The notes under the pieces were generated by a model. The model was not told the origin of the DNA, ran no database searches, and saw only the letters and a list, made by a program, of their open reading frames with translations. Below, piece after piece: positions 29,679 through 57,007 of a stretch of DNA of 64,000 bases. The translations under genes were made by a program, and so were the position numbers. This stretch comes from Candidatus Bathyarchaeota archaeon. Lineage in GTDB: Archaea; Thermoproteota; Bathyarchaeia; Bathyarchaeales; Bathycorpusculaceae. Each line of letters starts with the position of its first letter. The first letter of the stretch is position 1. Where the stretch lies: positions 64,001-128,000 of the forward strand of contig CAVYHV010000030.1 of NCBI GenBank assembly GCA_963768425.1, written 5' to 3'.

Positions 29679-29829
29679 AACAAAATCATTCTGTCATCCA
29701 AACACTTGATGATAGTCTCGGTTAGCAGAATAGTGCTTCGCAACATTTCCCAGTTACAAATCTGCTTATATGCTTCTCCTTTAAATAATAAAACAGCAGA
29801 AACCAACATCACTTGGGGATTTGGAAATC

Positions 29830-32014: not shown

Positions 32015-32053
32015 TTAAAATCTTTAACTATCACTAGCGTTGCCTAGCTAAAA
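32015..32053 (+). repeat. att site 1 (left boundary)
   Basis: ttaaaatctttaactat + 12 nt + degenerate arm ctagctaaaa. Confidence 0.8.
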
Positions 32054-41940: not shown

Positions 41941-42840
41941 TCATTTTCGCTTGCGAAAAAGTTTCTCACCATTAAAGTCTACGACAAACTCAAAACCTGA
42001 CTCAACCAATTTCTGAGCTTCAACAATTGTATGTGCAATTGCAGAAGAATACTCATCACTTTCAAAGTTAATCATTTGAATGTAAATTAGAGTGTTGTTG
42101 ATTGACTTGTGCCCAAGCAGTCTCATGACGTGAAGAATATCTTTCGTCTTATGATACTCAATTGTAGCTCGCCAATGTCTGAGACTGTGATAATGAATTT
42201 GTGCAAGTCTTGGATTACCTAACGCAATTGCTGCTGCACGCTTTTGATGATTGAAGTTGCATATGACTGATTGACCGCTACCCGTACCAAAAACATATTT
42301 GTTATCTTTCTTCAATTGCATCAGCATAGCACACAACTTCTCAGATATTTTGAATTGACGTGCGTTGCTGTGCTTCTCAGGATTATTGAGCAAAACTATT
42401 CTGCTCTCGAAGTCTATGTCAGTCCATTGGAGAGAAAGAGCTTCTCCGATACGCATAGCTGTCTCTTTCAACAATTGCAGAATCGTAGAAGTTTTCTTTC
42501 CACAATACGCAATTAGCTGGTCTATTTCTGATTCTAATGGAATGAATGGAAGCTTATGTGTAGCTCGATACTTAGGTGGATTCCATTCTATGTTATTCAT
42601 TGTTGCGTATTTTCTGTACGCTGCTACAACTGTTACTTTAGTCGCTGAACTCCATGTTGATTGCAATGCAATTGCAGATTTCACTGACTCTCCATCGCAG
42701 AGTTTTGCGCCTGATTTCACTAACATTTCTAAGAACTTAGAGTAGTTAGTTATCGTTCTGCTGCTATACCCATTCCTTTGCAATTGGAGAGAGAACTGCA
42801 ACAGGCTGCTTGTCTGTAGATTTGAGTACGCCTTTTCCAT
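41941..42840 (-). CDS. Tyrosine recombinase/integrase 1
   Basis: MRIGE (R), EKHS (K), HSLRH (HxxR), LGHK (H), TLIY (Y). Confidence 0.95.
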   Translation of the reverse strand: MEKAYSNLQTSSLLQFSLQLQRNGYSSRTITNYSKFLEMLVKSGAKLCDGESVKSAIALQSTWSSATKVTVVAAYRKYATMNNIEWNPPKYRATHKLPFIPLESEIDQLIAYCGKKTSTILQLLKETAMRIGEALSLQWTDIDFESRIVLLNNPEKHSNARQFKISEKLCAMLMQLKKDNKYVFGTGSGQSVICNFNHQKRAAAIALGNPRLAQIHYHSLRHWRATIEYHKTKDILHVMRLLGHKSINNTLIYIQMINFESDEYSSAIAHTIVEAQKLVESGFEFVVDFNGEKLFRKRK

Positions 42841-42942
42841 ACAATTTAATTGAGCATGTATTCCTTTTAAGACGTTCTACTTGTGCATGTGAATCAATTG
42901 CAACAAAATATAAGATAAAATTGGATTGTATGTATTTTAAAT

Positions 42943-42974
42943 CTTTAACTATCCCTATTCGAGCATAGTTAAAG
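42943..42974 (+). repeat. att site 2: CTTTAACTAT-N12-ATAGTTAAAG
   Basis: Perfect 10-bp inverted arms, about 100 bp upstream of integrase 1. Confidence 0.88.
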
Positions 42975-43073
42975 AAACTCCTCCTATAATCACCCAAGGA
43001 AAAATCAATCAAAGAACTACAGGTTGCAATCTAGTGGCAAATCATATTAGGAATTTTTTATAAATAGCAGGTT

Positions 43074-43409
43074 ATGACTCTCCTGAGTAGTCCAACAGCA
43101 ACTCCGTTTGACAATATGCAACAACAAGTTCTTATCTCACAATATTTGACATTTGCCCTAGTCTTAGGCATAGCTGTTCTGCTTGCTGTGTCAAATCTCT
43201 ATTTTTACGCACCAAGATATAGGAAATGGGTCGGGATAGCAGGTATTTCTCTTGGAGCAATGGGAAGCGCTATCTGCATTGGAGTTATACTTCTTACCGT
43301 TTCAAACAATGGTGCGGATCTTGGATTAGGTGTCATTACCCTTTTTGTCATTGAAATTCCAGTTATGTGCGTTGGAGTCTTATCTGTAAAGAACAGGAAA
43401 AAGACATAA
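43074..43409 (+). CDS. Small 3-TM membrane protein
   Basis: Lies between att site 2 and the half-site at 43422. Confidence 0.6.
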   Translation: MTLLSSPTATPFDNMQQQVLISQYLTFALVLGIAVLLAVSNLYFYAPRYRKWVGIAGISLGAMGSAICIGVILLTVSNNGADLGLGVITLFVIEIPVMCVGVLSVKNRKKT

Positions 43410-43421
43410 TCAGACGGAAGT

Positions 43422-43440
43422 TATTCGAGCATAGTTAAAG
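43422..43440 (+). repeat. att right half-site
   Basis: tattcgagcatagttaaag is identical to the right parts of the sites at 42943 and 47302. Confidence 0.85.
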
Positions 43441-43485
43441 TAAGCCTTCATATGTAAAGCAGAGAAGCAATTGAAAGAAGAATTC

Positions 43486-43540
43486 GGTCAAGAAACTTTG
43501 ACTAAATTCAGTCAAGGAATTTTTACGAATAGCCTTTTAT
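43486..43540 (+). promoter_or_regulatory. Triple-box repeat + TATA, copy 1
   Basis: GGTCAA-gaaact-TTGACT-aaattc-AGTCAA, 19 nt, TTTTAT. Confidence 0.85.
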
Positions 43541-43564
43541 CGATAACCATTCGTACTGATTATT

Positions 43565-44785
43565 ATGGGCTTTAAGAAAACTTCCGCTTTGGTGCTTATT
43601 GGGTTATTTCTGATCTCTATTGTCAGCTTTCAATCTGCAATTGTGAAAGCTCAAGCCAGAACGCTCATTGTTCCAGACCAGTACCCAACTATTCAAGATG
43701 CTATAGGCAATGCAAGTTCAGGAGATACAGTGTACGTCAAAGATGGAACATACAATACAGGGTTTAATATTGATAAATCATTATCGTTAGTTGGAGAAGA
43801 CCCAGAAAAGACTATCATTCGTGGAATCGAACGATACCCATATTGGCAATATCCAACAATTCAGGTATCTGACGAAAATGTCAGTATTTCAGGCTTTACA
43901 ATAACAAACTCCTGGGAAGCCATCGACATCTACAACGTTAATGACGCTTATTCAATTAGTATTACTGGTAACAACATTGTAAAAAATTTGTCTGGAATCG
44001 GAGCAGGGGGCGTGAATTTAGTTATCTTTGGGAATAACATAACTGATAACTCGAAAGGCGGGATAAGTTTTGACGGTCAAAACAGCATCATTTCTAATAA
44101 CTACATTTACCAAAACTCATTTGGAATATACACGTCTGAGATTAAGAATGTGACCATCCAAGACAATACTATTTCAGATAACGGAGGAAACTCGAATTCG
44201 GAGCAATTTGGTGGACTGGATCTTCAGAGTTTTGCTTCCATCTTTGTTCATGGAAATAATATCGAAAATAACGTTGGGGATGGTATCTTGCTTGAGGGCA
44301 ACATCAAAGCTTCAATCCACAATAACAATATAACGAACAACACTGTGGGCATAAAACTTGATAATTATCTTCTCGGAGGTATCTTCCATAGTGTGGGCAC
44401 AGGCAATGAGATTTACAACAACAACCTGATCGACAATATCAAGAACGCTTTAGTAGTGCATACAGACGAAAATGATGCCACATGGAATGGATACATAGGG
44501 AATGGAACAGATGTTGTTTCATGGGATAGCGGTAAGGTTGGCAATTACTGGAGTGATTACAGCGGTCAAGGAACTTATGTTATTGACCAAAACAATACTG
44601 ACGAGCATCCGCTAAGTCAACAAGTTCACATTTCTACAATAACACCTACAATACCTAATTTGCTTTCCATACTAAACGGTGCAATTATCGTGGTTATTGT
44701 AGTTGCATTAACTGCCATTGTCGCATTATTACTTTACAGAAGGCATCGAAAGACCACTAACTCCAGACAATTGACACCTCACTAA
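43565..44785 (+). CDS. Surface protein with right-handed beta-helix (NosD/CASH-like) and C-terminal TM anchor
   Basis: Signal peptide, VPDQYPTIQDAI..A..GDTVYVKDGTY, I.GNNI repeats, GNYWSDY, TM + RRHRK. Confidence 0.88.
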   Translation: MGFKKTSALVLIGLFLISIVSFQSAIVKAQARTLIVPDQYPTIQDAIGNASSGDTVYVKDGTYNTGFNIDKSLSLVGEDPEKTIIRGIERYPYWQYPTIQVSDENVSISGFTITNSWEAIDIYNVNDAYSISITGNNIVKNLSGIGAGGVNLVIFGNNITDNSKGGISFDGQNSIISNNYIYQNSFGIYTSEIKNVTIQDNTISDNGGNSNSEQFGGLDLQSFASIFVHGNNIENNVGDGILLEGNIKASIHNNNITNNTVGIKLDNYLLGGIFHSVGTGNEIYNNNLIDNIKNALVVHTDENDATWNGYIGNGTDVVSWDSGKVGNYWSDYSGQGTYVIDQNNTDEHPLSQQVHISTITPTIPNLLSILNGAIIVVIVVALTAIVALLLYRRHRKTTNSRQLTPH

Positions 44786-45190
44786 TTGAAATCGTAGTTG
44801 AATGTTTGATGATTTTCACTATGATTTAGACCTTTGAGATGATTGAGGTAACTTAGACCCATGTCTTGAGACTAGTCATAAAGTATACCCCAACGATTGA
44901 CTATGAAGAAATAACTTGTTAATTATTTTAACATTCCAATAACAAAAGAGACTTAGAGAATAATAGATATTTAGTCACAACTTGGAATGTTGAAAGGTCT
45001 TGAAATACTGTGTTTAACATGACCCATGTTGATTAAAATGCATTCTTTTCCATTGAAAAAAGAATTTTTGAACGCTTCTCTCAAAGACTTTCATATGATA
45101 AATTATAATTAGCTGTGTAGTGTGAGCGAAGGACTGTGTCATTTAGAATTATTCTTCCCAAACCAAAGAGAGCCTGATTGACTCAACAAC

Positions 45191-46021
45191 TTGTTGCTAG
45201 ACCCTTATCAGATTACCGTCAACAGTGTAGATAGGACTACTACCCTGACTGATATTTCCAGAAATCTAAATCCTAGCAGACACCATACTAATTTAAAAAC
45301 CAAAAGGGCAGATATTGAAACTCCAAAGAGGGGGGTTGACCCTCAAAGGAGTTGGACAATAATAGTTAGACAATACAATGAATATAAAACCTATCAATTC
45401 TGCAGCAATGCAGTTTATGACAATTGGTGCATGGGTTTCATTGACTATAAAGAGCTGAAAGAAGAATTTGTAAAGTTTCCTCTTCCGGATGTCCCACAAA
45501 GATATAACAAAATGGTGGAGCTAGCTACCCTGTTCTTCCTTCCAGTCATCATAAGAGAGTTGCTAGAACCTTTTTATGAGAAGATTGAAGTCTCTTGTAA
45601 CTACTTTCCATCCACAGGTCCGGACATAATTGTTTTTTCAAAGGATAGTCTCTTGTTAAAGATGGAGGTATTGAATTGGTGGATACAGTCATATCTTTCA
45701 GAGGGAAGGGCCTCAGGCATAAAAGACAATCTCAAGGGAGCACGCTACAAGGTCTTGTATGTAACATCCGACAAAAACTTAACAACATGGACTATGAATA
45801 GTAAACTCCTTTCAGGTCTCAAGAAAGCGCTCAAAGGAGTTAATATTTACTACTCACGTTACCAAATACTTCCAATTACTTATTTTGACTATCTTTTCAA
45901 GATTGATTACAGATTTGCTAAGGATAGAGCAATCTTCAATGAGAAAACCATCAAACACCAAAAGATTCGATTAAAGAGGTTCTTTGAGCAAATAGGGATT
46001 ATTCCTCTTGTAAAGAGATAA
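45191..46021 (+). CDS. Hypothetical protein, possible PD-(D/E)xK fold
   Basis: GPDIIV......KMEVLNW; true start probably downstream. Confidence 0.5.
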   Translation: MLLDPYQITVNSVDRTTTLTDISRNLNPSRHHTNLKTKRADIETPKRGVDPQRSWTIIVRQYNEYKTYQFCSNAVYDNWCMGFIDYKELKEEFVKFPLPDVPQRYNKMVELATLFFLPVIIRELLEPFYEKIEVSCNYFPSTGPDIIVFSKDSLLLKMEVLNWWIQSYLSEGRASGIKDNLKGARYKVLYVTSDKNLTTWTMNSKLLSGLKKALKGVNIYYSRYQILPITYFDYLFKIDYRFAKDRAIFNEKTIKHQKIRLKRFFEQIGIIPLVKR

Positions 46022-46298
46022 TAATAGAATAATGGCTAGACAGAGATTATCCTTGTTCTGCCTATTTCAATATTTGATTAACCCTTTCTAAAAGGAATTG
46101 TTCTCATTTGAAAATAAGAGGTTTCAATTCCGCCCTTTCCAAAAACAAGACACAATCCTCTTGTAAATATGGTATTATGTTTGATTATTTCTTTCTGTTC
46201 CCAATCTGGTTAATGGTTTCTGACTTTGTGATAGTGGGTGGTTTTATGTTGTTTGACCTATCTAAGAAACCTAAATTATTCAACTGTTTGATAGGTTA

Positions 46299-47201
46299 TC
46301 ATTTTCTCTTTCTAAAAATCTTGACTCCATCAAATTCTGTAACGTACTCGAATCCAATTTCAATCAACTTCTGAGCTTCCTCAACTGTTTTGGCAACTGA
46401 AGAGGTGTATTCATCACTCTGTTCGAACGCAACCAGATGTGTGTAGATGAGGGTGTTGTTGATGGATTTGTGTCCTAGGAGGTTCATGACATGAAGAATG
46501 TCTTTGGTTTTGTGGTATTCAGTGGTCGCCTTCCAATGTCTTAATGTGTGGAAGTGGATTTGAAGGAGATGAGGATTCGCTAACGCAACTGCTGCTTTCT
46601 TTCTCTGAAACCTGAAGTTACAAATTGTAGATTGTTTACTTCCTATTCCAAAAATAAACTTCTCATCTTTTTTTATTCTAAGTATCATGGAAGATAGTTT
46701 TTCAGATATCTTAAAACAACGAGCATTACTATGTTTCTCTGGTCTGTTGAGTAGGATTACTCCTCTTTCCAAGTTGATGTCTGTCCACTGTAAGTCTAAC
46801 GCTTCTCCGATCCGCATTCCTGTTTCCTTTAGGAGTTGAAGAATTGTAGAAGTTTTCTTTCCACAGTAGGCAATCAGAGAATCAATTTCAGATTCAGTGG
46901 GAATGAAGGGTAACTTTGTTGTTCTCTGGTACTTGGGTCTAACCCATGATATGTTGTTCATTTCCGCATACTTAGCATAGGTGGCAACCACAGTCACCTT
47001 TGTGGATGGACTCCAATCCGATTTAAGAGAGATGACTCCTTTGACAGACTCAGGGTCACTCAAGTCAGCCCCATATCTTACTAACAATTCAAGGAACTTG
47101 GAGTAATTCAATATAGTTCTCTCAGAATAACCATCCTTCTTGAGTTTCCAAGAAAACTGAATTATTCCATCGTTCTCATGATTAGAGTATGTAAGTTCCA
47201 T
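46299..47201 (-). CDS. Tyrosine recombinase/integrase 2 (close homolog of integrase 1)
   Basis: GMRIGE, EKHS, HTLRH, LGHK, TLIY; shares LIAYCGKKTSTILQLLKET and the FRKRK end with integrase 1. Confidence 0.95.
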   Translation of the reverse strand: MELTYSNHENDGIIQFSWKLKKDGYSERTILNYSKFLELLVRYGADLSDPESVKGVISLKSDWSPSTKVTVVATYAKYAEMNNISWVRPKYQRTTKLPFIPTESEIDSLIAYCGKKTSTILQLLKETGMRIGEALDLQWTDINLERGVILLNRPEKHSNARCFKISEKLSSMILRIKKDEKFIFGIGSKQSTICNFRFQRKKAAVALANPHLLQIHFHTLRHWKATTEYHKTKDILHVMNLLGHKSINNTLIYTHLVAFEQSDEYTSSVAKTVEEAQKLIEIGFEYVTEFDGVKIFRKRK

Positions 47202-47301
47202 AGTATTTTTAAGTAAGTTATTCCTTTTAAAATATTCTATATCTGCATGTCTTTCAAGTGATAAAAATATTAGTTAAAATTGGATTTTATTAGTTTTAAA
47301 T

Positions 47302-47333
47302 CTTTAACTATACCTATTCGAGCATAGTTAAAG
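47302..47333 (+). repeat. att site 3: CTTTAACTAT-N12-ATAGTTAAAG
   Basis: 31 of 32 nt identical to site 2; 100 bp upstream of integrase 2. Confidence 0.9.
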
Positions 47334-47389
47334 AAACCCCTTCCGCAATCAACCAATGGAAAACAAAGAGACAATTGGAAAAAGAGTTC

Positions 47390-47444
47390 AGTTAAGAAAG
47401 TTTGACTTAGCTTAGTCAAGAAACCTGTACAAGAACGCTTTTAT
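47390..47444 (+). promoter_or_regulatory. Triple-box repeat + TATA, copy 2
   Basis: AGTTAA-gaaagt-TTGACT-tagctt-AGTCAA, 19 nt, TTTTAT. Confidence 0.85.
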
Positions 47445-47469
47445 CGGCAGACTAATTCCAAACGTTGTT

Positions 47470-48081
47470 ATGGGTAAGAAAAGATTAGTCATAACATCCT
47501 TGTTAGTGGCTCTACTCTTTGTAAGCGCAATTGCAGGAACGGTAGCTTATTATAATGACAAAATGGCGAACCTAAACAGCCAAGTATCTGAGTTAAAAGC
47601 AGTAATAGCGAATTTATCAACTCGCAACATGACGGCTTCATTGGGAATTGCTGAACTGTTAGGCAATGAAAGCACCTATATGGGTGGCTATGTTGCTACA
47701 CCAATTCCATATAATTACCTTTACATAACTGGTTCAATAAGAAACGTTGGAAACGCCACAGCATACAATGTTGGACTACACGTCATAGCTTTTGATGCGA
47801 CAGGCGCATTAGAAATAAACATGACAGTTCCATTGGATGGAATATTTGGAATCGATAACGCAACCAGAACTTTTGTTTTAGAACACTACGGCTATGGTAA
47901 TTATGACCCAGCGAATCATACCTACAGCAACCATTACAGCTCAAGATTGTGGGAGATTGTGGATGGAAACCAGACAGTTGATATTGGTGGTGCGCCTGAC
48001 TATTATGGTTCTCTAAGCATCATCAATGAAGGCATAGTTACCAATTGGACTGTAACACCTGTATGGACAGATGCGCCATGA
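47470..48081 (+). CDS. Membrane-anchored exported protein (coiled coil + beta domain)
   Basis: N-terminal TM, LYITGSIRNVG..TAYNVGLHV, WTVTPVW. Confidence 0.75.
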   Translation: MGKKRLVITSLLVALLFVSAIAGTVAYYNDKMANLNSQVSELKAVIANLSTRNMTASLGIAELLGNESTYMGGYVATPIPYNYLYITGSIRNVGNATAYNVGLHVIAFDATGALEINMTVPLDGIFGIDNATRTFVLEHYGYGNYDPANHTYSNHYSSRLWEIVDGNQTVDIGGAPDYYGSLSIINEGIVTNWTVTPVWTDAP

Positions 48082-48118
48082 GTCAAGGAGCTTGCTTCTA
48101 TAGCTATGAATCGAAACA

Positions 48119-48173
48119 AGTCAAGAAACCTTGACTAAGCCCGGTCAAGAAATCAGTACAAGAGAGCTTAAAT
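48119..48173 (+). promoter_or_regulatory. Triple-box repeat + TATA, copy 3
   Basis: AGTCAA-gaaacc-TTGACT-aagccc-GGTCAA, 19 nt, TTAAAT. Confidence 0.85.
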
Positions 48174-48177
48174 ATAA

Positions 48178-48903
48178 ATGAAAAGTGCTGCAACAGCAAG
48201 AACGATCAAAGCCATGACTAGGAAGAGGAATTTACTATTTGGTTCAATAATTGTTGCTGTGGTAGCGGGTTCTTTTATTATTGCATTGATCCTGCTAAAT
48301 AGCCAATCTTCGCCGGTTGAGAAGACGGTACCGGAAAAACTGAGTTTGGGTCTTTTTTCAAACCAAACGAGCGTGTTGCAAGGGGGCGAAATTCAGGATG
48401 AAGTTAATGTAACCTCAAATCGCCCTGCCGAAAACATAACATTGAATGCTCAAACGGGAACAAGCGGCATAATTTCCATTTTCGAGCCCTCCGTCAGCCA
48501 CAACAATTTTACAAGTTTTCTTAACATAAAAATCACTGATTCTGCCCCTACAGGAAACTACTCCATAAGTATAACAGCCTCAGGCGATGGCCAAACAGCA
48601 ACCAGTTCTTTTGATCTTTCCGTTCTTAGTGCCAATGTCACAGTTTCCGGGAGAATTGAGATGTCCACAGGATATGAGAATGGATACCTAACCTCACTCG
48701 TGTTCTATAGCGAACAAACAAACACCAATCAAACGATACATATTCCACATGCTTCGATGCAAGGTCTATTAAACGGTCTTTTAAGCGATTATTCCGTTAC
48801 TCTTCAAAATAACCAGACGTACATCGTGTGGGTGAATTATTTTCAGGGAGACGCAAGCCTTCATGAATTTTATCCCGTGCAGTATTATTTCGGCCCGTAT
48901 TGA
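48178..48903 (+). CDS. Membrane-anchored Ig-like surface protein
   Basis: TM, SAPTGNYSISITASG; C-terminus may extend to about 48957 through an indel. Confidence 0.75.
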   Translation: MKSAATARTIKAMTRKRNLLFGSIIVAVVAGSFIIALILLNSQSSPVEKTVPEKLSLGLFSNQTSVLQGGEIQDEVNVTSNRPAENITLNAQTGTSGIISIFEPSVSHNNFTSFLNIKITDSAPTGNYSISITASGDGQTATSSFDLSVLSANVTVSGRIEMSTGYENGYLTSLVFYSEQTNTNQTIHIPHASMQGLLNGLLSDYSVTLQNNQTYIVWVNYFQGDASLHEFYPVQYYFGPY

Positions 48904-49029
48904 TCTTTGCACCCGCAGGAAAAAACACAATATCTGGATTAAACTTCACTGGATAACCCATGCAAGACTTTCACCAAAGACATAGAGTAGATTGGTCGCA
49001 CAGCAACTATAACCCACCCAATAACGTCT

Positions 49030-49084
49030 AGTCAAGAAACTTTGACTTGCCACAGTCAATAATCCTTAACGAACAGGCTTTTAT
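49030..49084 (+). promoter_or_regulatory. Triple-box repeat + TATA, copy 4
   Basis: AGTCAA-gaaact-TTGACT-tgccac-AGTCAA, 19 nt, TTTTAT. Confidence 0.85.
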
Positions 49085-49109
49085 CGCCTGCACTTGCTTA
49101 ACACTAAAC

Positions 49110-49991
49110 ATGAGTAAAATCGGCAAAACCTTCGCTTTGATTCTCATTCTCATTATGACTATCTCAAGTATTGAACTATTAGTAGCTAAACATGCAAGTG
49201 CTCAATCAATCGGAAATCTGACTGCTCCAACTTTCACAGTCACACTAACAAACACCTCTTACTCTACACCACCTAGCCATTACGTTGACCCTCAAACAGG
49301 CGCAAACATCACAGTGCCAGGCTCTTTTGTCAATCAAGAAAACCTTACGTTTACCATTCAAAATCAACCAGACGTTACCTACTACATAATCCGATGGACA
49401 ACACCGTACATGAAAAGCTGGAGTAACATCGAGGGATACATTGGTGGAGACCCTATGAATGCTACTGTTAAAGGAACTTCAGGTTCAACAACAATCTGGG
49501 TTCTAACCGGCAATAGCAATACGTTCCCAATATACGAAAATGGCAGTCTCGTTGACACGGTCGCCGGTTTCTCCTTTCCGTTTGGTTTTCAAGAACTCAA
49601 TTTTGAAAACGGAGCCAAAATAGAATTTCAAGTCCAAGCCTCAAATGGTTCGCCTACTTACGTGTCAACCATCCTAGACGAGCACTTTTCTATTATAGGT
49701 GAAATAAGCGATTGGAGCAGCACGCAAACAATAACCATACCATCAAGTTCTGCTGCAACAAGTCCATCACCTATTACTATAACAACTCCTGCCGTTCCAG
49801 AGTTGTCTTGGTTGATGATTATGCTTTTGCTTCTTTCCGTGTTCTCTGTTGCTGTGATAGTTAGGCGTCTAAAAAACCTCGGACTGGACCAGCAAAAATT
49901 TCCTGGTGAAAGTGGTAATGGAATGTTTGACGATTTTCTGGCAGTCTATAATCTTTTGCCAGTAGTATTGAAACCTATTTCTAAGACTTAA
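49110..49991 (+). CDS. Surface protein with PEF-like C-terminal sorting segment
   Basis: Signal peptide MSKIGKTFALIL, SDWSSTQTITIP, S/T/P linker, VPEL-TM-RR. Confidence 0.8.
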   Translation: MSKIGKTFALILILIMTISSIELLVAKHASAQSIGNLTAPTFTVTLTNTSYSTPPSHYVDPQTGANITVPGSFVNQENLTFTIQNQPDVTYYIIRWTTPYMKSWSNIEGYIGGDPMNATVKGTSGSTTIWVLTGNSNTFPIYENGSLVDTVAGFSFPFGFQELNFENGAKIEFQVQASNGSPTYVSTILDEHFSIIGEISDWSSTQTITIPSSSAATSPSPITITTPAVPELSWLMIMLLLLSVFSVAVIVRRLKNLGLDQQKFPGESGNGMFDDFLAVYNLLPVVLKPISKT

Positions 49992-50028
49992 TAAAACAAT
50001 TATGCAGGTAGAAATGTTTGACGTTTTC

Positions 50029-52932
50029 TCAATAATTTCTAATTAAAATTGATGTGAGACAAGCGGGCATTTTTGGTTTTCTCTCTCTGACAAATATAAT
50101 CGATAACAGTATTACTGTTGCAAGAAGTGGCAGAATTATCAAAGTTGGAAACTCTGGAACGATTGATGTCTGTGACCCAAACGTTATGACTACGGTGTGG
50201 CTACTGTGATGATAAGTAAAACTTATTAGCCAAACATTTCCCTCCGAAATGGAATTATAATTAATTGTTCCGCCGTCTAAGGTGACGTTGAGTTTTGAAA
50301 TATCTGGGATGAGGGATTGCGGAACGCAAACTTCAGTAAACCCGGTTGTTCCCGAAGGTCCAGAAACGCCAAAGCTTAATTCGTTTGTTGTTGAGTCAAA
50401 CGTTAGGCTTGTAAGCGTTGAGTTTGAAGTAACGGAGAATACGTTTTGATTTTGGCTGTTGAAAGGTTCTATTGCAAAGTTGTATACTGCACTTGCACTT
50501 GAATAGTCGCTGTCACCTGACCACGTAGCTTCGATGCCATAAAAACCTGAGACAGAGGGATTCCACACGCAAGAAAAGTTTCCGTCATTGCCAGTTTTTA
50601 AGTAAGCTAAGTCTTGCCAAGTTGCTCCTCCCGTGACGCTGTCAGAAAGCTGAATTCCAGCATCAGGCAAGCCTGCTCCGTCACCTGTTAATGAACCTTG
50701 AATTTGAACGTTAAATCCAGAGGTTGTCGTGGAACTTATGCAGACGAATGATAAGTTCGGAGATGGCAGATTTGATGCTGGTGTTGGCGTTGGAGTCGGA
50801 GTTGGAACTACGGTTGGTACAACTGTTGGGGTTGGCGTGGGAGAAGGCACATTGTTTGCCCAATACGTATCACTAACATCGACTAATCCAATGCATCCTG
50901 GATTGCTGCTTGCCGCATCAAATAATGTATATACGTTATCTCCAACTACTATGATTCCGGGAGACCCTACTCCGTTAGTGTCCCAAATGTATTGTCCGCC
51001 GCTTAAGTATGGCTCTGATGGATATGCATCCCAATGGATAAGGTCAGAACTGTAATACCAATAAATCACTGGTAGTGGACCTGCAAAAAGGGTAGCTTGC
51101 ATGAAATACAAGTTAGATGTAGGAACTGTAAAGACGTCTGAAGTTTCTATTGAATATGATGCCGTTAAAATCGGTGCCGAACCATAAATTGTCCATCCAT
51201 AAGGAAATGACGAAGCAGATGTTGTAGCTAACAGAACTTGGCCGTTTCCATCTACGAAATACATGTAGTATGTGCTTCCGACAAGAATTACAGATGGGTT
51301 AAAAATGCTGCTGCTTCCAGCCCAATTCGGCGGAGAAAGAATTGGATTTTCTGAGTATTTAGTCCATGCCGAAGTTGAGTTCAAACTACTTACTGGACAA
51401 GTGGCTAAACCAATGCTACTGTATCCTCCACCAACTTCAGAACCATAAAACATGTACACGGTACTTCCATTCACGATTAAACATGGAGCTGAAACTCCGT
51501 TAGGATTTTCCCAAGATTGTGTTTGTGTGAGAACTTGTCCAATTACAGTCCATGTTTGTAAATTGGTGCTTTGCGCTAAACCTATAGTCCAATTTCCAGA
51601 AGATTCTTCTCCCGTAGGTGTGGCGCTGAAAGACATGTAATAAGATCCGTTAGCGTAAATGACAGAGGGGTCTTTCACTCCACTGAGATCAAAACTGTCT
51701 GTTCCCGTAAACACAGGACTTGTTGAAACAAAAGTTAGAGATGATGGAGGTGTTGGGGTCACTGGTGAGGGAGTGGGTGTTGGAGAGGGACCAGGCGAAG
51801 GACTAGGCACGCTAGGAATGTAGACAGGAGCTAGCGGATTACTTGAATTTAAGAATGGAACATAATTAACCGTTCCCAAATTCAAATTGTCTTTGAAGTC
51901 ATAAATTTTTTGGCTAATTGCCTGTGAATCATTTGTTCCCCACCAATTGTAAGTAGCATCAATATTTGAGTTAACACTTCCAGCCAGTAAGAAATTATAA
52001 TTTGAGTTGTTATAGATGTTGTTACCAGAAATCAAATAGCTGACCGACCCACTATACGAGCCTATGAAAACTCCATCAGTATTATTGCTGATTGTATTGT
52101 TTTGAGTGATTATCGTAAATGGATTATAGTTGCCGTACAAATCCAGTTCAATTCCGCGAGTATTATCAAAAACCAAATTCTCCTGTATCAAAGATTGAGT
52201 GGTATACTCCGAATTAGCAGTAGCATAAATCCCCATGTAAGAACCAAACACCAAGTTGCCGTAAACGGTTGCATTTCCTAGGAGATAAATTCCAGTGTAG
52301 CGAGCAGCGAAAACTGTGTTATTGCAAATAGTTCCTCCACTGGCCGTAATTTGACCCTCTACGGTGTTGTTGGAGATTATTGGGGCCGCTATTCCTTCGA
52401 CATTAATTGCATCATTGTTACTTACTTGGTTAGTGCAATAAATTGTATTATTGTCTAATTTTGGTGAAACCGAATCTATCAGTATAGTCGGATACAGCTC
52501 CCATGTGGAAGTGATAAATGCGTTCTCAATTATGCTTCCAGATTTTGTTGCATCATTCCAACTTAGACTACTGCCCTCAAACTCAATTGCTCCATCTCCA
52601 CTACCAGCCCCATTGGGTATGTTAAACACTATGTTATCACTCGACGTGCCTGTAGCATTTAACGTACCGTTTACTCTCAGGTAATATCCATTAAAATTGA
52701 CTGTGACTCCCGGCTGAATCGTAAGCATAACGCTATTATTGACAAGTACATTTCCAACAAGCAAATATGGGCTACTTGCTTGCGTCCACATAGTGTCTGA
52801 GCTTATTATGCCACTTACGTTCGTACCGCTTTGAGCCTTGCTAAAATGGACATAAGTAACTCCAACCATCGTGGAAACTAATAATGCCACGATTAATGCC
52901 AGTGCTAATGCGCTTCTTTTCATAAGCACCAA
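50029..52932 (-). CDS. 967-aa mosaic surface protein: beta-helix + glycoside-hydrolase-like beta-propeller + Ig-like + PEF-CTERM
   Basis: WTQASSPY, I.NN.I repeats, DATYNWWG, PT linkers, DPSVI..GSYYM / WTKYSENPIL repeats, VPEFP-TM-RERK. Confidence 0.85.
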   Translation of the reverse strand: MVLMKRSALALALIVALLVSTMVGVTYVHFSKAQSGTNVSGIISSDTMWTQASSPYLLVGNVLVNNSVMLTIQPGVTVNFNGYYLRVNGTLNATGTSSDNIVFNIPNGAGSGDGAIEFEGSSLSWNDATKSGSIIENAFITSTWELYPTILIDSVSPKLDNNTIYCTNQVSNNDAINVEGIAAPIISNNTVEGQITASGGTICNNTVFAARYTGIYLLGNATVYGNLVFGSYMGIYATANSEYTTQSLIQENLVFDNTRGIELDLYGNYNPFTIITQNNTISNNTDGVFIGSYSGSVSYLISGNNIYNNSNYNFLLAGSVNSNIDATYNWWGTNDSQAISQKIYDFKDNLNLGTVNYVPFLNSSNPLAPVYIPSVPSPSPGPSPTPTPSPVTPTPPSSLTFVSTSPVFTGTDSFDLSGVKDPSVIYANGSYYMSFSATPTGEESSGNWTIGLAQSTNLQTWTVIGQVLTQTQSWENPNGVSAPCLIVNGSTVYMFYGSEVGGGYSSIGLATCPVSSLNSTSAWTKYSENPILSPPNWAGSSSIFNPSVILVGSTYYMYFVDGNGQVLLATTSASSFPYGWTIYGSAPILTASYSIETSDVFTVPTSNLYFMQATLFAGPLPVIYWYYSSDLIHWDAYPSEPYLSGGQYIWDTNGVGSPGIIVVGDNVYTLFDAASSNPGCIGLVDVSDTYWANNVPSPTPTPTVVPTVVPTPTPTPTPASNLPSPNLSFVCISSTTTSGFNVQIQGSLTGDGAGLPDAGIQLSDSVTGGATWQDLAYLKTGNDGNFSCVWNPSVSGFYGIEATWSGDSDYSSASAVYNFAIEPFNSQNQNVFSVTSNSTLTSLTFDSTTNELSFGVSGPSGTTGFTEVCVPQSLIPDISKLNVTLDGGTINYNSISEGNVWLISFTYHHSSHTVVITFGSQTSIVPEFPTLIILPLLATVILLSIIFVRERKPKMPACLTSILIRNY

Positions 52933-52993
52933 TCGCTAATACGTTTAACTTTCTCTAATGTTTTGTGCTGTAGGCTATTTCTAGAGCATTGGG

Positions 52994-53043
52994 ATAAAAG
53001 GCTATTCGTAAAAGTTTCTTGACTGGGTTTAGTCAAAGTTTCT
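52994..53043 (-). promoter_or_regulatory. Triple-box repeat + TATA, copy 5 (inverted; first box displaced to 54327-54331 by the IS)
   Basis: Minus strand AGAAACTTTGACT-aaaccc-AGTCAAGAAAC-TTTTACGAATAGCCTTTTAT; the tail is identical to copy 1. Confidence 0.88.
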
Positions 53044-53099
53044 CTTATGTAAGGAAACGATCGAAGGCCAAACCAAACAGACTTCCGACTACCTTTCTA

Positions 53100-53267
53100 C
53101 TTCACCCATCCACACTTAAATTTCTTTCACCAATGTATTTCAGACAACATTCTCTTATCAGCGAACAAAGTCGCACTACGGCTTCAGCTAACAGCCAAGG
53201 AAAACTCCATTCTTGACCAAGCAGATAAACTGCAGCAAACTTTAGAAGACATCCCAAGCTGCCCGTC
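53100..53267 (-). ncRNA. Putative bridge/seek RNA (ends approximate)
   Basis: Two guide-hairpin-guide loops, one matching the target repeat and one matching the IS end junction (see findings). Confidence 0.78.
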
Positions 53268-54257
53268 CTACTTTACCGTGAAATCCCGCTCATAAGTCCA
53301 AACAGCCCAAACCACATTCACCAACTTACGAGCAACAATCTTAATCGCATCCTTGCTATTGCCTTTCCTAACACAAGCATCTCTAAACACAGCCGCCAAA
53401 TGACCCTCTGGACAAAACCTAACATGAGACCAAGCAGACTCAATAAAAATACACTTAAGCCAACAATCACCCCTCGCTTCTTTTCCAGCAAACGAATGCT
53501 CACCAGACTGACTCACCCTCGGCACCAACCCAGCATAATGCGCCAACTTCTCAGCACTGCTAAATCGTTTAATATCGCAAATCTCCGCATACAACGTCAA
53601 AGCCGACAAAAAACCAATTCCTGGTATGGTCATAAGCAGCTCAACAGGCTTAATCTTTCCATATTTCCTTCTCAGCATGGCTTCAATTTTCTTAGTCTGC
53701 TCAGCCATAACATCCAACAGTTCAAGGTTCTGCTCAACCTCAAAAACGCCAAGATCAGAAGCTTCCCTTCTTCCCTTCAAAGTCCCCAAATTAACATCAA
53801 GACTAATATCTCGCTTCCTAAACTCGGAGCGGGTCCTATTCTTAACACTTGTAGACAACTTTGTTCTATACGACCGATGTCTTAGCAGGTTCCTAAGCCA
53901 CCGCAACTCGCTGGGAGGAACATAACAGGTTGGCAACCAATTCATCCTCACTAAATCAGCCAACAACTTACTATCCACACGATCAGTTTTAACATCTTCT
54001 GCACGATATTTCACTTTCACCGGATTCGCCAGCAAAGGCTCAAACTCTAATTCATCCAAAAAATCAATCCAAGGCCAACAAAAACCAACCGATTCCAACG
54101 CCACCTTACTGCCTTTAGGAACATTCTCTAAAGACGTTCGCAATTCAGCTCTACTTGTCTTAATTCTCTCTGTTTTTACTATCTCACCATTCACTTTCAT
54201 TATTGTTACCTGAGTATTCTTCAGGTGAACATCCAAACCAACCACCACATCGCTCAA
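53268..54257 (-). CDS. IS110-family DEDD recombinase/transposase
   Basis: VGLDVH, ALES, KTDRVDS, TIPGIG, YAGLVP..SQSG, ARKL. Confidence 0.95.
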   Translation of the reverse strand: MSDVVVGLDVHLKNTQVTIMKVNGEIVKTERIKTSRAELRTSLENVPKGSKVALESVGFCWPWIDFLDELEFEPLLANPVKVKYRAEDVKTDRVDSKLLADLVRMNWLPTCYVPPSELRWLRNLLRHRSYRTKLSTSVKNRTRSEFRKRDISLDVNLGTLKGRREASDLGVFEVEQNLELLDVMAEQTKKIEAMLRRKYGKIKPVELLMTIPGIGFLSALTLYAEICDIKRFSSAEKLAHYAGLVPRVSQSGEHSFAGKEARGDCWLKCIFIESAWSHVRFCPEGHLAAVFRDACVRKGNSKDAIKIVARKLVNVVWAVWTYERDFTVK

Positions 54258-54425
54258 CTTCTCCTACCTCCGATATCACTACTGGCTTATCGGAGGTCTA
54301 CTTAGAAAATCCTTTACATCCCGTCTTGACCAAGATTAGTTTATTTCTACTATCAGATTCAAGACTTTCGAATAAATTATGTTTCAACAAATGGATAGAT
54401 TTCTTTTTGCGAAATGCAAAAAACG

Positions 54426-54471
54426 TTAGTTGAAATTGGAATGCGTGAGTTTGAAATCCTTAACTATCACT
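54426..54471 (+). repeat. att site 4 with conserved upstream arm
   Basis: ttagttgaaattggaatgcgtgagtttgaaatccttaactat aligns with ttagttaaaattggattttattagttttaaatctttaactat before site 3; followed by cact as in site 1. Confidence 0.8.
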
Positions 54472-54639
54472 GTCTACGTCTATCTCAAGGTGGATAACGT
54501 TTCTCGATTGACTGTTTGGTGTGGTTTTATCCTCTGCTTTTGATGTGGTTTGTCTAAGATGAAAGACTGTTCTGCTTGCGGAACACTTTGTTCTTCTGGG
54601 AGAGCTAAAAGGCGCTCCTTCGTATTTTCTTAATGTGGG

Positions 54640-55338
54640 GTGTTTCGCCTGAAAAGAAAAATTGTGGCATTAACGCTTCTTACATTAATTGCTTTAGCAT
54701 TTAGCGGAGTTAATTTATCTAATCAGCAAAAAGGGCTTTTTTCCACAACCTTAGGTTTGCAGCCTACCGCTTTTCCTTCACCTTCCCCTGAACTTACACC
54801 TGTTGTAACTCTTGCACCGCCAGAACCAACTGTTTCTTTTACTCTTTGGCATACAAATTCACCTGTTATCCAGCCACCGGCAAAACAACTTGCACATATA
54901 CCTCCAATCTGCGAAATAGCATCTCCCCAAAATCAAACGGTATTGCAAACAAACAACTTTACGCTAAACGTAAACGTAGCTTCGTACTTTTGGATAATTA
55001 ACAGTGTTTATTACGAAGCAGATTGGATTGAGGGAATTCACCAAATATTCGGCATCCAGCCAAATGGTATTGACGCACTTAATGCTTCAATAACTGTAAA
55101 CTTTAGTGAAATCCCTGATGGAAACCACACATTAACGGTCTACGCTAACACTCATGACGGTTCCCATAGTTTTGCCACTGTAACCTTCTTAACTGAGAGT
55201 TATCCACCAAGCTTAACTAAGTCAGAGCCTTTTCCAACCCTAACTGTTGCCGCTTCTTCAGCAGCATCAGTAATGGTTGTGATTGCTGGTTTGTTAGTTT
55301 ATCGCGAACGACACAAAAGTTCAAAAAAGTCAAGTTGA
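54640..55338 (+). CDS. Exported protein with Ig-like domain and C-terminal EPFP-TM anchor
   Basis: Signal peptide, P/T linker, I.SPQN, IPDGNHTLTVYA, EPFPT-TM-basic tail. Confidence 0.8.
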   Translation: MFRLKRKIVALTLLTLIALAFSGVNLSNQQKGLFSTTLGLQPTAFPSPSPELTPVVTLAPPEPTVSFTLWHTNSPVIQPPAKQLAHIPPICEIASPQNQTVLQTNNFTLNVNVASYFWIINSVYYEADWIEGIHQIFGIQPNGIDALNASITVNFSEIPDGNHTLTVYANTHDGSHSFATVTFLTESYPPSLTKSEPFPTLTVAASSAASVMVVIAGLLVYRERHKSSKKSS

Positions 55339-55411
55339 CAGCTTCAGCGCCAAAGGCATCCTAAGCGCGATCGGCACTTTCTAAGCAACACTGGGGCAAC
55401 CAAGGCATTGG

Positions 55412-55428
55412 TTAAAATCTTTAACTAT
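55412..55428 (+). repeat. att site 5 (right boundary); also a plausible BRE/TATA for AMP phosphorylase
   Basis: Identical to 32015-32031; ends 34 nt before the ATG. Confidence 0.85.
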
Positions 55429-55462: not shown

Positions 55463-57007
55463 ATGGAGTTAAAGGTTGAACTCTTACCCATACTTACAGG
55501 CGGAAGCAGAATCGCCATCCTCAGCGAAGGAAGCGCCGACTCTTTGGGCGTGCACAGCTCCGACAGAATACGAATAAAATATGGCAACCAAGAAATAATT
55601 GCCATCGCGAACATCGCTGAATATTTTTCGAATAAGCGCATAGGGCTCTACGATGAAACCGCCAAAGTCCTCGGTGTGAAAGAGGACGAAACTGTTTCGG
55701 TGCAGTTGGCTCCTCTTCCTGAGTCGCTTTTCATGGTGAGGGCTAAACTTCATGGGGAACGTTTACGCGAAAAAGACGTCGTTACCATCGTCAAGGACGT
55801 TGTTGAACGGCATTTGAGTAACGCGGAAATATCAGCGTTTTTAACTGCCCTTAGCATCCATGGGCTGAGTGCAAGCGAGAACGAGGCGCTGTCGAGGGCG
55901 ATGGTTGCAACGGGTAAAACTTTAAACTTCGGCGAAGGGCCCATCCTTGACAAGCACAGCGTCGGCGGGATACCGGGGGACAAAACGTCCATGCTGGTCG
56001 TGCCCATCATAGCCGCTGCAGGGTACACGATTCCTAAAACTTCTTCAAGGGCAATAACTTCTCCCGCTGGAACTGCGGACAGAGTCGAAACCCTCTGCCC
56101 AGTTAACCTTTGCATAGAGGAGATTAAGAAGACGGTGGCAAAGACAGGCGGCTGCTTGGTTTGGGGCGGCGCCTTGGAGCTTGCGCCAGCCGACGACCTC
56201 TTCATCCAAGTCGAGTACCCCCTTGGAATTGACCCTATGCTACTGCCTTCGATTCTCAGCAAGAAAAAAGCAATGGGAGCAACCCACGTGGCCATCGACA
56301 TCCCCACAGGCATGGGCGCCAAAATCAAAACCCGAACAGAAGCTTACACCTTAGCTTCAGACTTTGTGGATTTAGGCAAACGTTTGGGCTTGAACATTCA
56401 ATGCGCTTTGACTTTCGGCGACCAACCATTGGGCTGCGGCATTGGACCCGCATTGGAAGCAAGAGAAGCATTAGCGACTCTTATGGGCGGCGGACCAGCC
56501 GATCTGCGCGATAAAGCCGTAAGCCTCGCAGGAATGCTTTTCGAGATGGTTGGAGCAGAGAACGGCCGAGCCAAAGCTGAAGAAATGATTGACTCAGGCA
56601 AGGCGGAGGCAAAGATGCGGGAAATCATCGCTGTCCAAGGCGGAAACCCTAAGGTGCAGCCCGACGACCTTCCAGTAGGCTGCGAACACTTTGAGGTGAA
56701 GTCTGACCGGGCGGGAAAAGTCATTTGGCTCAGCACCGACAACATCGTGCGCATCGCAAGGGAAGCTGGCGCACCCAAGGAGAAAGGCGCAGGCATGATT
56801 CTACATGCCAAACTCGGCGACACGGTGCATAAAGACAGCGTGTTATTTGAAATCTATGCAGACCGAAGCAGCAAGTTGACGTCGGCGCTGGAGCTTGCAA
56901 AGCAGCTACCCCCCATCGTGTTAACCAACAAGCCCGCGGAAAAAATGATTCTGGACCAGGTGCCTGAGAAGCTTGCACACGAAAAGACATTCAGCTTAGA
57001 CAGGTAA
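55463..57007 (+). CDS. deoA: AMP phosphorylase
   Basis: N-terminal extension, DKHSVGGIPGDKT, IPKTSSRAITSPAGTAD, SKKKAMG, DIPTG.GAK, AGAPKEKGAG. Confidence 0.95.
   Translation: MELKVELLPILTGGSRIAILSEGSADSLGVHSSDRIRIKYGNQEIIAIANIAEYFSNKRIGLYDETAKVLGVKEDETVSVQLAPLPESLFMVRAKLHGERLREKDVVTIVKDVVERHLSNAEISAFLTALSIHGLSASENEALSRAMVATGKTLNFGEGPILDKHSVGGIPGDKTSMLVVPIIAAAGYTIPKTSSRAITSPAGTADRVETLCPVNLCIEEIKKTVAKTGGCLVWGGALELAPADDLFIQVEYPLGIDPMLLPSILSKKKAMGATHVAIDIPTGMGAKIKTRTEAYTLASDFVDLGKRLGLNIQCALTFGDQPLGCGIGPALEAREALATLMGGGPADLRDKAVSLAGMLFEMVGAENGRAKAEEMIDSGKAEAKMREIIAVQGGNPKVQPDDLPVGCEHFEVKSDRAGKVIWLSTDNIVRIAREAGAPKEKGAGMILHAKLGDTVHKDSVLFEIYADRSSKLTSALELAKQLPPIVLTNKPAEKMILDQVPEKLAHEKTFSLDR

Follow-up and report, generated by a model that had tools for sequence, protein, structure and literature searches.

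The DNA described here is a window of 64,000 nucleotides (nt) from the genome of a Candidatus Bathyarchaeota archaeon (assembly GCA_963768425.1, contig CAVYHV010000030.1, here C30, positions 64,001 to 128,000), and its subject is an island of 23.4 kb (32018-55428, measured between the first and last copies of a short repeat) inserted between the genes rbcL and deoA, in a divergent intergenic region of roughly 89 bp. The island is an array of at least six units in tandem, two of which possess short Xer-like tyrosine integrases, termed int1 and int2. The repeat is a 14-mer, AAATCTTTAACTAT, referred to as the core, with four exact copies in the 2.96-Mb genome, all of them at this locus and on the + strand (32018, 42939, 47298 and 55415). 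A fifth copy with one mismatch, AAATCCTTAACTAT, lies at 54454 in the same orientation, there being one core at every unit boundary, and the start-to-start distances of the five are 10921, 4359, 7156 and 961 nt. The principal features are listed below (aa, amino acids; GC, guanine plus cytosine fraction; ORF, open reading frame).

32018..32031, + strand: core copy 1, AAATCTTTAACTAT, left border of the island, preceded by the native left flank GGTTTTTCCTTA and followed by a degenerate right arm, CTAGCTAAAA
32032..42938: unit A, a cryptic low-GC element of 10.9 kb (GC 0.36-0.42), with int1 at the right end and 13 ORFs that match no family
41941..42840, - strand: int1, Xer-like tyrosine recombinase of 299 aa (PF00589, 8.9e-21)
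42939..42974, + strand: core copy 2 with a perfect palindrome (core 42939-42952; arms 42943-42952 and 42965-42974; 12-nt spacer)
44823..47297: int2-bearing unit of about 2.5 kb, with a 276-aa ORF (45191-46021, + strand), a doubtful 88-aa ORF and int2
46299..47201, - strand: int2, Xer-like tyrosine recombinase of 300 aa (PF00589, 6.2e-22)
47298..47333, + strand: core copy 3 with a perfect palindrome (47302-47333)
47312..54453: unit C, 7.1 kb without an integrase, encoding exported or anchored proteins of 203, 241 and 314 aa and an inverted protein of 967 aa
54454..54467, + strand: core copy 4, AAATCCTTAACTAT, with one mismatch
54468..55414, + strand: unit D, a single-gene cassette for a 232-aa exported protein with a C-terminal anchor (gene 54640-55338)
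55415..55428, + strand: core copy 5, right border of the island, followed by the native right flank TCCTAAATCTAA

At copies 2 and 3 the core extends into a palindrome, CTTTAACTAT-N12-ATAGTTAAAG, which is exact at 42943-42974 and 47302-47333 and recurs with three mismatches at 32022. By chance 0.01 matches would be expected, and three or more were seen in none of 100 shuffles. The 10-mer arm, with up to one mismatch allowed, has 17 matches in the window against 5.6 +/- 2.5 expected, a number reached in 0 of 100 shuffles; exact copies include those at 32022, 42943, 42965 (- strand), 43431 (- strand), 47302, 47324 (- strand) and 55419, with a one-mismatch copy at 54458. A half-site, TATTCGAGCATAGTTAAAG, occurs three times in the whole 2.96-Mb genome (42956, 43422 and 47315). 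The starts of int1 and int2 are 102 and 100 nt from their respective palindromes. An initial annotation of this DNA had reported two tyrosine integrases transcribed leftward, each with a palindrome some 100 nt upstream, a half-site at 43422 and variants at 32022, 54459 and 55419, all of which lie where it placed them; its view that the repeat beside the integrases behaves as an attachment site, at which units accumulate, also agrees with what follows.

The sequence common to all junctions is the 14-mer only, followed by a partly conserved NCCT, while the 12-nt spacer and right arm move with the right-hand unit, irrespective of its left neighbour. The left flank of core copy 1 (GGTTTTTCCTTA) is that of empty sites in relatives. 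With the native left flank at the leftmost junction and the native right flank at the rightmost, the two ends are as expected of attL and attR produced by a site-specific event. Taken per 1 kb, GC stays at 0.36-0.44 all the way from 32 to 55 kb, compared with 0.50 adjoining on the left and 0.46-0.54 on the right, 0.41-0.54 for the flanks overall and 0.42-0.47 for the contigs of the genome. No tRNA gene was found at either border of the island, and no RNA family matched in 29000-58500 at E up to 0.1.

The locus was compared across the genus. The distance from the rbcL start to deoA is at most 1.5 kb in 13/13 same-genus loci, and in 12 of these the starts of rbcL and deoA are about 87-90 bp apart with one core between them; the thirteenth, in genome G016, has an 820-bp insert between two cores. 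The exact 14-mer is held by 95 of 120 genus genomes, mostly once, and from these results the 14-mer is a conserved element of the divergent promoter region of rbcL and deoA. It probably contains the TATA-like elements of both genes. At least 9/120 genomes have two or more cores between rbcL and deoA, namely the present one (G000), G091, G094, G047, G016, G107, G113, G049 and G122, a count which leaves out G033, G105, G050, G112 and G129 (each with two or more 14-mers). In five further multi-copy genomes the extra 14-mers are chance matches in coding sequence or, in G063, a core before another surface-protein gene. At the eight other occupied sites the inserts have sizes of 0.8-10.4 kb and different contents, and among the 23 junctions tabulated in eight genomes the 14-mer is exact in 21 and has one mismatch in 2. 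The promoter region of rbcL/deoA is a real and recurrent hot spot of site-specific integration in this Bathyarchaeia genus. In G049 (locus L087) a native-type left flank and core lie 1.36 kb from the rbcL start, with a 192-aa ORF and a one-mismatch core, AAATCTTTAACTGT, in between, and this genome may have a further, older insertion on the rbcL side.

The two integrases are 68% identical to one another and 51-52% identical to the two nearest aligned relatives, and both retain the catalytic R, HxxR, H and Y residues (alignment A1). The proportion of nonsynonymous differences between them (pN) is 0.22 as against a saturated proportion of synonymous differences (pS) of 0.83, and both are hence maintained by purifying selection. 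Constraint is also apparent on the site, as core and palindrome upstream of the two genes agree in 35/36 nt, compared with 74/98 in the remaining spacer to the integrase start and 604/903 in the coding sequence. So conserved a site beside integrases saturated at synonymous positions is the strongest internal sign that integrase and site may cooperate. The best curated model for both is that of archaeal XerA (NF040815), with 96.7 bits for int1 and 99.3 bits for int2, below the cut-off of 220. The IntI model (TIGR02249) gives 56.9 and 64.3 bits against a cut-off of 265, matching in two stretches only, and NF011946 gives 39-52 bits against a cut-off of 435. The two are Xer-like recombinases belonging to neither the XerA nor the IntI family.

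Relatives of int1 and int2 are present in 54/61 genus genomes searched, and most of these, uninterrupted and 390-450 aa long, carry a Zn-ribbon (CPxC...CxxC) at the N-terminus. An SSV-type split integrase was considered and rejected, the core lying 100 nt upstream of the start codons and not inside int. A tblastn search of the island for a detached Int(N), with the first 125-135 aa of two full-length relatives as queries, gave no match. Upstream of related integrases, palindromes with 9-bp arms and 0 mismatch were sought in the 41/48 loci that could be scanned and one was found, at L044, 644 nt upstream and unrelated; upstream of the full-length paralogue on contig C14 there is nothing comparable to the palindrome. 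At L027 (G002) a related integrase has a stop after the Zn-ribbon domain, and an imperfect palindrome with similar arms (CTTTAAGTATAC...) lies about 45 nt upstream of the start. The exact palindrome had 0 matches in viral contigs and 4 in metagenome contigs, the latter unrelated and without homologous proteins or core.

Unit A includes a winged-helix protein (32108-32374, - strand) and a Zn-ribbon protein (33706-34050, - strand). No viral or plasmid hallmarks were detected in it with Pfam and PHROGs, which gave weak regulator matches only, and in 119 other species its DNA has relatives only as short pieces, mostly of the integrase gene, the best, in G097, being a fragment. The winged-helix protein has 88 aa, and 76 nt separate its gene from the leftmost core. 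Were unit A circular, this gene would lie shortly upstream of int1, with the att site between the two, and its product could be an excision or regulatory factor.

The second core interval (42939-47298) is composite, consisting of a 466-bp insert, a beta-helix cassette and the int2 unit. The features within this interval and unit C, among them a repeated element termed the triple box, are as follows.

43074..43409, + strand: membrane protein of 111 aa with three transmembrane segments, inside the 466-bp insert between 19-nt direct repeats, TATTCGAGCATAGTTAAAG (42956 and 43422)
43422..43440, + strand: half-site, comprising the rest of the spacer and the right arm without a core, at the head of the beta-helix unit; the sequence downstream aligns with other cassette heads
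43487..43542, + strand: triple box and TATA-like box CCTTTTATCG before the beta-helix gene
43565..44785, + strand: beta-helix (NosD-like) protein of 406 aa, exported, with a C-terminal anchor (PF05048, PF13229; hydropathy)
44801..44822, + strand: cassette tail motif AATGTTTGATGATTTTC, then ACTAT as remnant of a decayed core
50029..52932, - strand: propeller/Ig-like (immunoglobulin-like) protein of 967 aa in unit C, with an inverted triple box (52993-53043) in front
53044..54330, - strand: IS110-family element, bounds approximate and taken from loose contig ends, with transposase at 53268-54257 (PF01548, PF02371)

Three nt of spacer precede the 19-nt repeat that encloses the 466-bp insert. The left arm is shared between sites, and together these two features suggest a lox-like site with exchange at or near the border of left arm and spacer. 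Some boundaries have since decayed (43422, 44818). After the beta-helix tail only ACTAT is found here, compared with TGACAGTTTG and a core in relatives and in a contig of public run X3 (followed by deoA), and it is from the decayed core and the X3 contig that the left boundary of the int2 unit was deduced. In unit C the triple boxes are located at 47391 (203-aa protein), 48120 (241-aa) and 49031 (314-aa). The listed TTG start of the 314-aa ORF (49047-49991) lies inside its own triple-box promoter, and the true start is probably an ATG about 63 nt downstream (MSKIGKTF...), giving about 293 aa.

The IS110 element, which landed in unit C, has the DEDD transposase domains and scores 194.5 bits with NF033542, above the cut-off of 140. 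The genome has no further copies of it from which its target could be read. It abuts the inverted triple box of the 967-aa gene, while its right end in public run X1 abuts another triple-box-like sequence; with a sequence of this kind next to it in both the window and X1, it may target the triple-box operator. That an RNA-guided transposase of this family, or alternatively the host XerA, makes the junctions in place of int1 and int2 is extremely improbable. The transposase is transcribed leftward just before core copy 4, the same relative place that the integrases have before theirs, and IS110 relatives are known to target repeated palindromes. However, the element's bounds (about 53044-54330) do not coincide with a core, it is a single copy lying inside unit C beside a triple box, and tblastn found no IS110 transposase in the other arrays.

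A hydropathy scan of 43074-55338, integrases and transposase excluded, gave a hydrophobic segment (N-terminal, C-terminal or throughout) in 7/9 ORFs, the exceptions being the 276-aa ORF without a segment and the doubtful 88-aa ORF with one internal segment. The 967-aa protein has a GH32/43-like propeller. Its Ig-like Big_3_5 match is weak (0.00095, 20.1 bits, cut-off 35.5), and the PEF-CTERM model TIGR03024 gives 11.9 bits on it (cut-off 23) and no match on the 232-aa and 406-aa proteins. On these scores 'PEF-like' is a resemblance and not a family match, although the tails do have a PEF or EPF motif followed by a hydrophobic stretch and basic residues. The cargo had been described in the initial annotation as almost all exported or anchored; the hydrophobic segments in seven of nine ORFs, the beta-helix and the propeller bear this out, and the Ig-like and PEF assignments remain below cut-off. 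Homologues of the beta-helix gene do not exceed 48% identity and are all at other loci.

The triple box consists of AGTCAAGAAACTTTGACT, six bases, AGTCAAG, about 20 nt and then the TATA-like CCTTTTATCG. Five such repeats had been described, with an inverted one before the inverted gene, and these are indeed present as direct copies at 43487, 47391, 48120 and 49031 and an inverted copy at 52993-53043 before the 967-aa gene. Genome-wide the triple box has 53 matches at up to three mismatches, and together with the TATA-like box there are 19 non-redundant copies on 10 contigs, 15 of them outside C30. The 14-mer is absent from these other 15 promoters. The boxes end about 30 nt before start codons and also precede surface-protein genes in other species, and the triple box is read as a predicted operator array plus archaeal TATA box of a large surface-protein regulon, with no recombination role. 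A second palindromic element (...CCTATAGGTACCTGTGTACCTAAGGTTT) was observed directly upstream of triple-box promoters in the present genome (C14:285859, C17:231430 and C19:31040). It comes after genes ending in ...RHRKTAN-type tails, and in run X3 it lies upstream of the promoter of the 967-aa gene (window 53043), where the assembled genome has the IS110 element.

The cassette tail motif GAATGTTTGAC is not enriched genome-wide (78 matches against 60 for the reversed control) and is enriched locally on C30, with 11 matches. In the form (G)GAATGTTTGAYGATTTTC it was seen at the 3' ends of cargo genes in the window (41299, 41572, 44801, 49922 and 50013) and at L082, L084 and L127. In G094, G016 and run X3, cassettes end with this motif 10-17 nt short of the core, and a copy also follows a surface-protein gene at an unrelated locus of G113.

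Unit D (54454-55415) recurs in G094 and G047 with 79-80% amino-acid identity and DNA homology from core to core, being located beside deoA in the present genome and beside rbcL in the other two. Homologues of its gene, 73-81% identical, are present at unrelated loci in five other species; these cover only 54562-55301 and have no core. Only the copies at rbcL/deoA have the outer parts, about 95 nt at the head and 113 nt at the tail. As the homologues elsewhere are without this site-specific head and tail, unit D evidently represents a host gene that was recruited, as judged from these alignments. The 314-aa protein family is found also in cassettes of G091, G047, G107 and G113, and much of the cargo belongs to one fast-diverging family of 25-52% identity, with one pair at 94%. 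G091 has one 4.7-kb unit with three genes of the 314-aa family, further ORFs and no internal cores. Among seven cassettes compared from six genomes, with different cargo, six have a common head of 130-150 bp, consisting of core, spacer, right arm, AAACTCC..., CAATTGAAAAAGAGTTC and triple box; in the seventh, from G113, the head is reduced to core, triple box and a portion of the spacer. Several cassettes end in the tail motif 10-17 nt before a core.

These shared heads and tails bear on the central proposal of the initial annotation, an integron-like platform. In its strict form, a true integron analogue, a resident integrase would insert, excise and reorder surface-protein cassettes with one site type for integration and one for each cassette. 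The geometry of integrase, att site and cargo is as described, eight other species have one- or two-gene units without integrase between cores, the head is conserved in six of seven cassettes with a tail motif before the core in several, and the gene of unit D, from a chromosomal family, has gained a head and tail found only at rbcL/deoA. Integron core sites have the forms RYYYAAC and GTTRRRY, and the arms hold CTTTAAC and GTTAAAG, each agreeing in 6/7 positions with this consensus. Against this, an adjacent integrase is found in 0/8 of the other arrays and the integrases here lie inside units; the IntI score is 57-64 bits against a cut-off of 265; and attC-like sites are absent. An attC is an imperfect palindrome of roughly 57-141 bp that folds, whereas the palindrome here has 32 nt and is present at 2/5 boundaries only. 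The two perfect sites have hairpin energies of -7.2 and -7.4 kcal/mol with z of about -6 (-5.9 at 42939), and core copies 1, 4 and 5, which have no hairpin or palindrome, fold no better than shuffles, which indicates that a folded attC-like substrate is not a general requirement. In addition, the cassettes have their own promoters (five genes with triple box and TATA box), multi-gene units lack internal cores, and the supposed per-cassette site is a promoter motif found throughout the genome. An integron analogue is therefore quite unlikely, and the array is not an integron by any defining feature tested. The absence of an IntI-type integrase and of attC had already been noted from the sequence and stands. 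The platform itself does not, there being no resident integrase, a native rbcL/deoA promoter as the site and no integrase in 8/8 other occupied sites; nor does the triple box serve as a second, per-cassette site type, with 15 of its 19 copies outside C30 as operator/promoter. The 'same layout twice' reflects not one system in two parts but two related elements, their integrases 68% identical, that landed in one site.

Public sequencing runs were examined as Logan contigs of depth 2-3 from two studies, the share of the stretch covered per run being at most 0.14. One X1 contig joins 47311, the last core base behind int2, to 55475 in deoA, and an X3 contig leads from 44817, in the beta-helix tail, through 10 nt (TGACAGTTTG) to 55415 (the last core) and deoA. 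A loose end of an X1 contig at 55412 carries the native left flank, corresponding to an empty site in a relative. Contigs with 0 differences cross the junctions at 42939 and 55415, with an X3 contig spanning 55275-55493, which argues against chimeric assembly at these points. The joints of run X2 (49047 to 47412; 50161/55188 on opposite strands) were rejected as repeat artefacts of the repeated promoter and of similar C-terminal coding regions. The run variants are hints rather than proof, yet they break where the accretion model given below predicts. The comparison across genomes that had been suggested as a check of the initial annotation thus shows content and order varying between species and between public-run contigs, with breakpoints at the repeat.

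Taken together, the favoured explanation of the array, with a probability of about 0.7, is that small integrative elements and cassettes without an integrase have accumulated in tandem at an attB lying in a promoter. According to this, AAATCTTTAACTAT in the divergent promoter region of rbcL and deoA would be a chromosomal attB conserved across the genus. Small elements would carry a short Xer-like integrase beside their own site, in which the core is extended to a lox-like palindrome with arms of 10-11 bp and a spacer of 10-12 bp. These would recombine with attB so that the core is regenerated on both sides, and later arrivals could then enter any copy. The units, at least six, would be A (with int1), the 466-bp membrane-protein insert, the beta-helix cassette, the 2.5-kb int2 unit, C and D, with the integrase-less ones being remnants or having moved in trans like cis-mobilisable elements. 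The cargo would derive from the host's own fast-evolving surface-protein families, bringing its own operator/promoter in the form of the triple box. As in tandem elements made by pNOB8-type integrases, whose genes remain intact on integration, direct repeats of the att core are found at unit ends and the empty site is found in relatives; an intact integrase near one end is found in two units (int1 and int2) and not in the others. It is likely that int1 and int2 catalyse the integration events, and the integrase-less units may have been mobilised in trans.

A number of observations weigh against tandem accretion or limit the data on which it is built. None of the other eight occupied sites (8/8) contains an int1/int2 relative as a source of recombinase for those arrays. 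The best int1 relatives in the seven of these genomes that were searched have identities of 50% (G094), 46% (G016), 44% (G113, stop-interrupted), 35% (G107), 32% (G091, a fragment) and 31% (G049), and none was found in G047. Both int1 and int2 are without the N-terminal Zn-ribbon domain of about 130 aa of their relatives, which is unusual for the family. The hairpin and palindrome are missing from core copies 1, 4 and 5. Canonical exchange requires a homologous central overlap of 6-8 bp, and the spacer and right arm of the native site differ from those of the cassettes, for which reason the canonical two-step exchange over such an overlap does not fit. No circular or excised form was seen, and the variants from the runs are each a single contig of low depth. 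The genome itself was assembled from a metagenome (2.96 Mb, 91% complete, 4.75% contamination), and the genus comparison comprised 120 genomes, one per species.

A further point of this kind is that the head of core, palindrome and triple box precedes surface-protein genes at six loci away from rbcL/deoA, in G113 and G122. In the sequence fetched around each of the six, 3 kb per side except for shorter stretches at two contig ends, neither a second core (one mismatch allowed) nor a homologue of int1/int2 is present. These could be cassettes that occupy secondary sites; alternatively, the palindrome could serve in regulation, in addition to recombination or in place of it. If regulation were its sole role, the palindrome would be an operator in the head of a surface-protein regulon, homologous or microhomology recombination would have formed the junctions without a dedicated recombinase, and the integrases would be passengers. 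The six heads (core, palindrome, about 45-60 nt, triple box), for which the fetched stretches contain no flanking repeats or integrase, are in keeping with this, as is the distance of 67-91 nt from core start to triple box in five of six such heads having one adjacent; the core also appears to lie where the TATA-like elements of rbcL and deoA are expected. However, the native site and the heads share the 14-mer alone, yet 21/23 junctions have it exact and 2/23 with one mismatch. The junctions with it include those of units without a palindromic head (unit D, the units of G016 and G094, and unit A), while the homologues of unit D at other loci and the other 15 triple-box promoters of the genome are without the core. 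The diverged integrases, with synonymous sites saturated, moreover keep a 35/36 site 100 nt upstream. An explanation by regulation and general recombination alone is very unlikely.

It is possible but unlikely that the head-and-tail cassettes, with a head of about 150 bp (core, lox-like palindrome, operator/promoter) and a short tail, constitute a genuine cassette-exchange system of Bathyarchaeia. Xer-like integrases supplied in trans by elements of the int1/int2 type would then move surface-protein cassettes between chromosomal sites, including the rbcL/deoA promoter and a locus beside aspS. Such a system would be an analogue of the integron with self-promoted cassettes and no resident integrase, varying the cell surface. 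As to the locus beside aspS, two contigs of G113 (L126 and L129) end at palindromic heads with similar left flanks downstream of aspS, and L136 (G122) is likewise concerned. The present genome has 27 kb between aspS and the gene that lies beyond the G113/G122 locus, and the two are in another relative orientation. This suggests either a second variable locus or an inversion breakpoint at a palindromic head.

The genes flanking the island, on the left and right respectively, are listed here.

29821..30756, + strand: ribose-1,5-bisphosphate isomerase-type protein of the IF-2B family (PF01008, 6.2e-75), kept beside rbcL in relatives
30753..31976, - strand: rbcL, RuBisCO large subunit of archaeal form III type (PF00016, 1.8e-88; PF02788, 3.1e-40)
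55463..57007, + strand: deoA family, AMP phosphorylase-type, native right neighbour of the site (PF00591, PF02885, PF07831)

The isomerase, RuBisCO and AMP phosphorylase genes together make up the archaeal AMP pathway. rbcL is the native left neighbour of the attachment site and is 80-88% identical in the 13 same-genus loci. It is in two overlapping pieces in L017 (G016), L135 (G122) and L138 (G116), for which a frameshift or an assembly error is possible, and two of these three genomes have an occupied site.

Bathyarchaeia are abundant, uncultured archaea of sediment and soil, and to our knowledge their mobile elements have barely been described. A mapped pair of integrase and attachment site for this group was not found in the literature searched. 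Full-text searches of papers, supplements being outside their scope, gave 0 occurrences of the 14-mer or triple-box string, and searches of the literature on Bathyarchaeia integrases and on archaeal hot spots and cassettes, with the same scope, found nothing describing the rbcL/deoA site. The present locus provides a 14-bp attachment site readable from comparative data; it comes with two candidate integrases of 299-300 aa, relatives in which the site is empty and occupants that vary, and such an integrase/site pair could become a compact tool for archaeal genetics. The target is unusual, being the shared promoter of RuBisCO and AMP-salvage genes, and integration would rebuild the promoter on both sides. 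The cargo points to a fast replacement of cell-envelope proteins, on which viruses and attachment to substrates would plausibly act.

The array may be compared with a number of known systems. In streptococci, accretion of integrative conjugative elements (ICE), integrative mobilisable elements (IME) and cis-mobilisable elements (CIME) gives att-bounded integrase-less units beside integrase-bearing elements, excisable in cis or in trans in principle. The array here has the same juxtaposition of units, whereas the streptococcal systems are bacterial and conjugative and no transfer genes are found in the array. The core sites of Cre/lox and Xer/dif have two inverted arms around a central spacer. 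The palindrome resembles these in its arms and spacer, and the recombinases are of the Xer-like branch with 97-99 bits for archaeal XerA; in contrast, that score falls far short of the cut-off of 220, the partner sites have no common central region, and exchange apparently takes place at the left arm.

Archaeal integrated elements are documented in the sections cited here as re-using one site in tandem, having short att sequences and intergenic targets, and losing the integrase (PMC6563490, PMC8371274), and the Thaumarchaeota survey among these sources gives a median att of 17 bp (PMC6563490). The array is like the cryptic integrated elements of pNOB8 type, as these sections present them, in its flanking direct repeats, short intergenic att, re-use of the site, loss of integrase and cryptic cargo (PMC6563490, PMC8371274). 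It differs in its target, a promoter element flanked by two metabolic genes instead of a tRNA gene; in its very small units (0.5-2.5 kb, many with one gene and no integrase); in its cargo, which comes from the host's own surface-protein families; and in its integrases, shortened members of a Zn-ribbon family. For the tycheposons of Prochlorococcus, the cited portion of the text describes how each new arrival at a site displaces the older elements inward and partial att copies stay behind (10.1101/2020.12.28.424599). The island shares with them, on that description, the repeated integration at one site, the partial att copies and degenerate elements scattered within it and the adaptive 'plug-in' cargo cassette (10.1101/2020.12.28.424599). 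Unlike the array here, tycheposons are bacterial, with tRNA targets, usually replication modules and unrelated tyrosine recombinases.

Archaeal integrons in print, those of Ghaly et al., are, according to the part of the report cited, classical IntI/attC systems (10.1101/2022.02.06.479319). The array resembles integrons in a tyrosine recombinase transcribed away from the site, in the accumulation of units in one orientation and in some of these having a single gene. In contrast to integrons it is without IntI, attC hairpins, a resident integrase and a Pc promoter, its units carry their own promoters, and the site at which they accumulate is a native promoter of the host.

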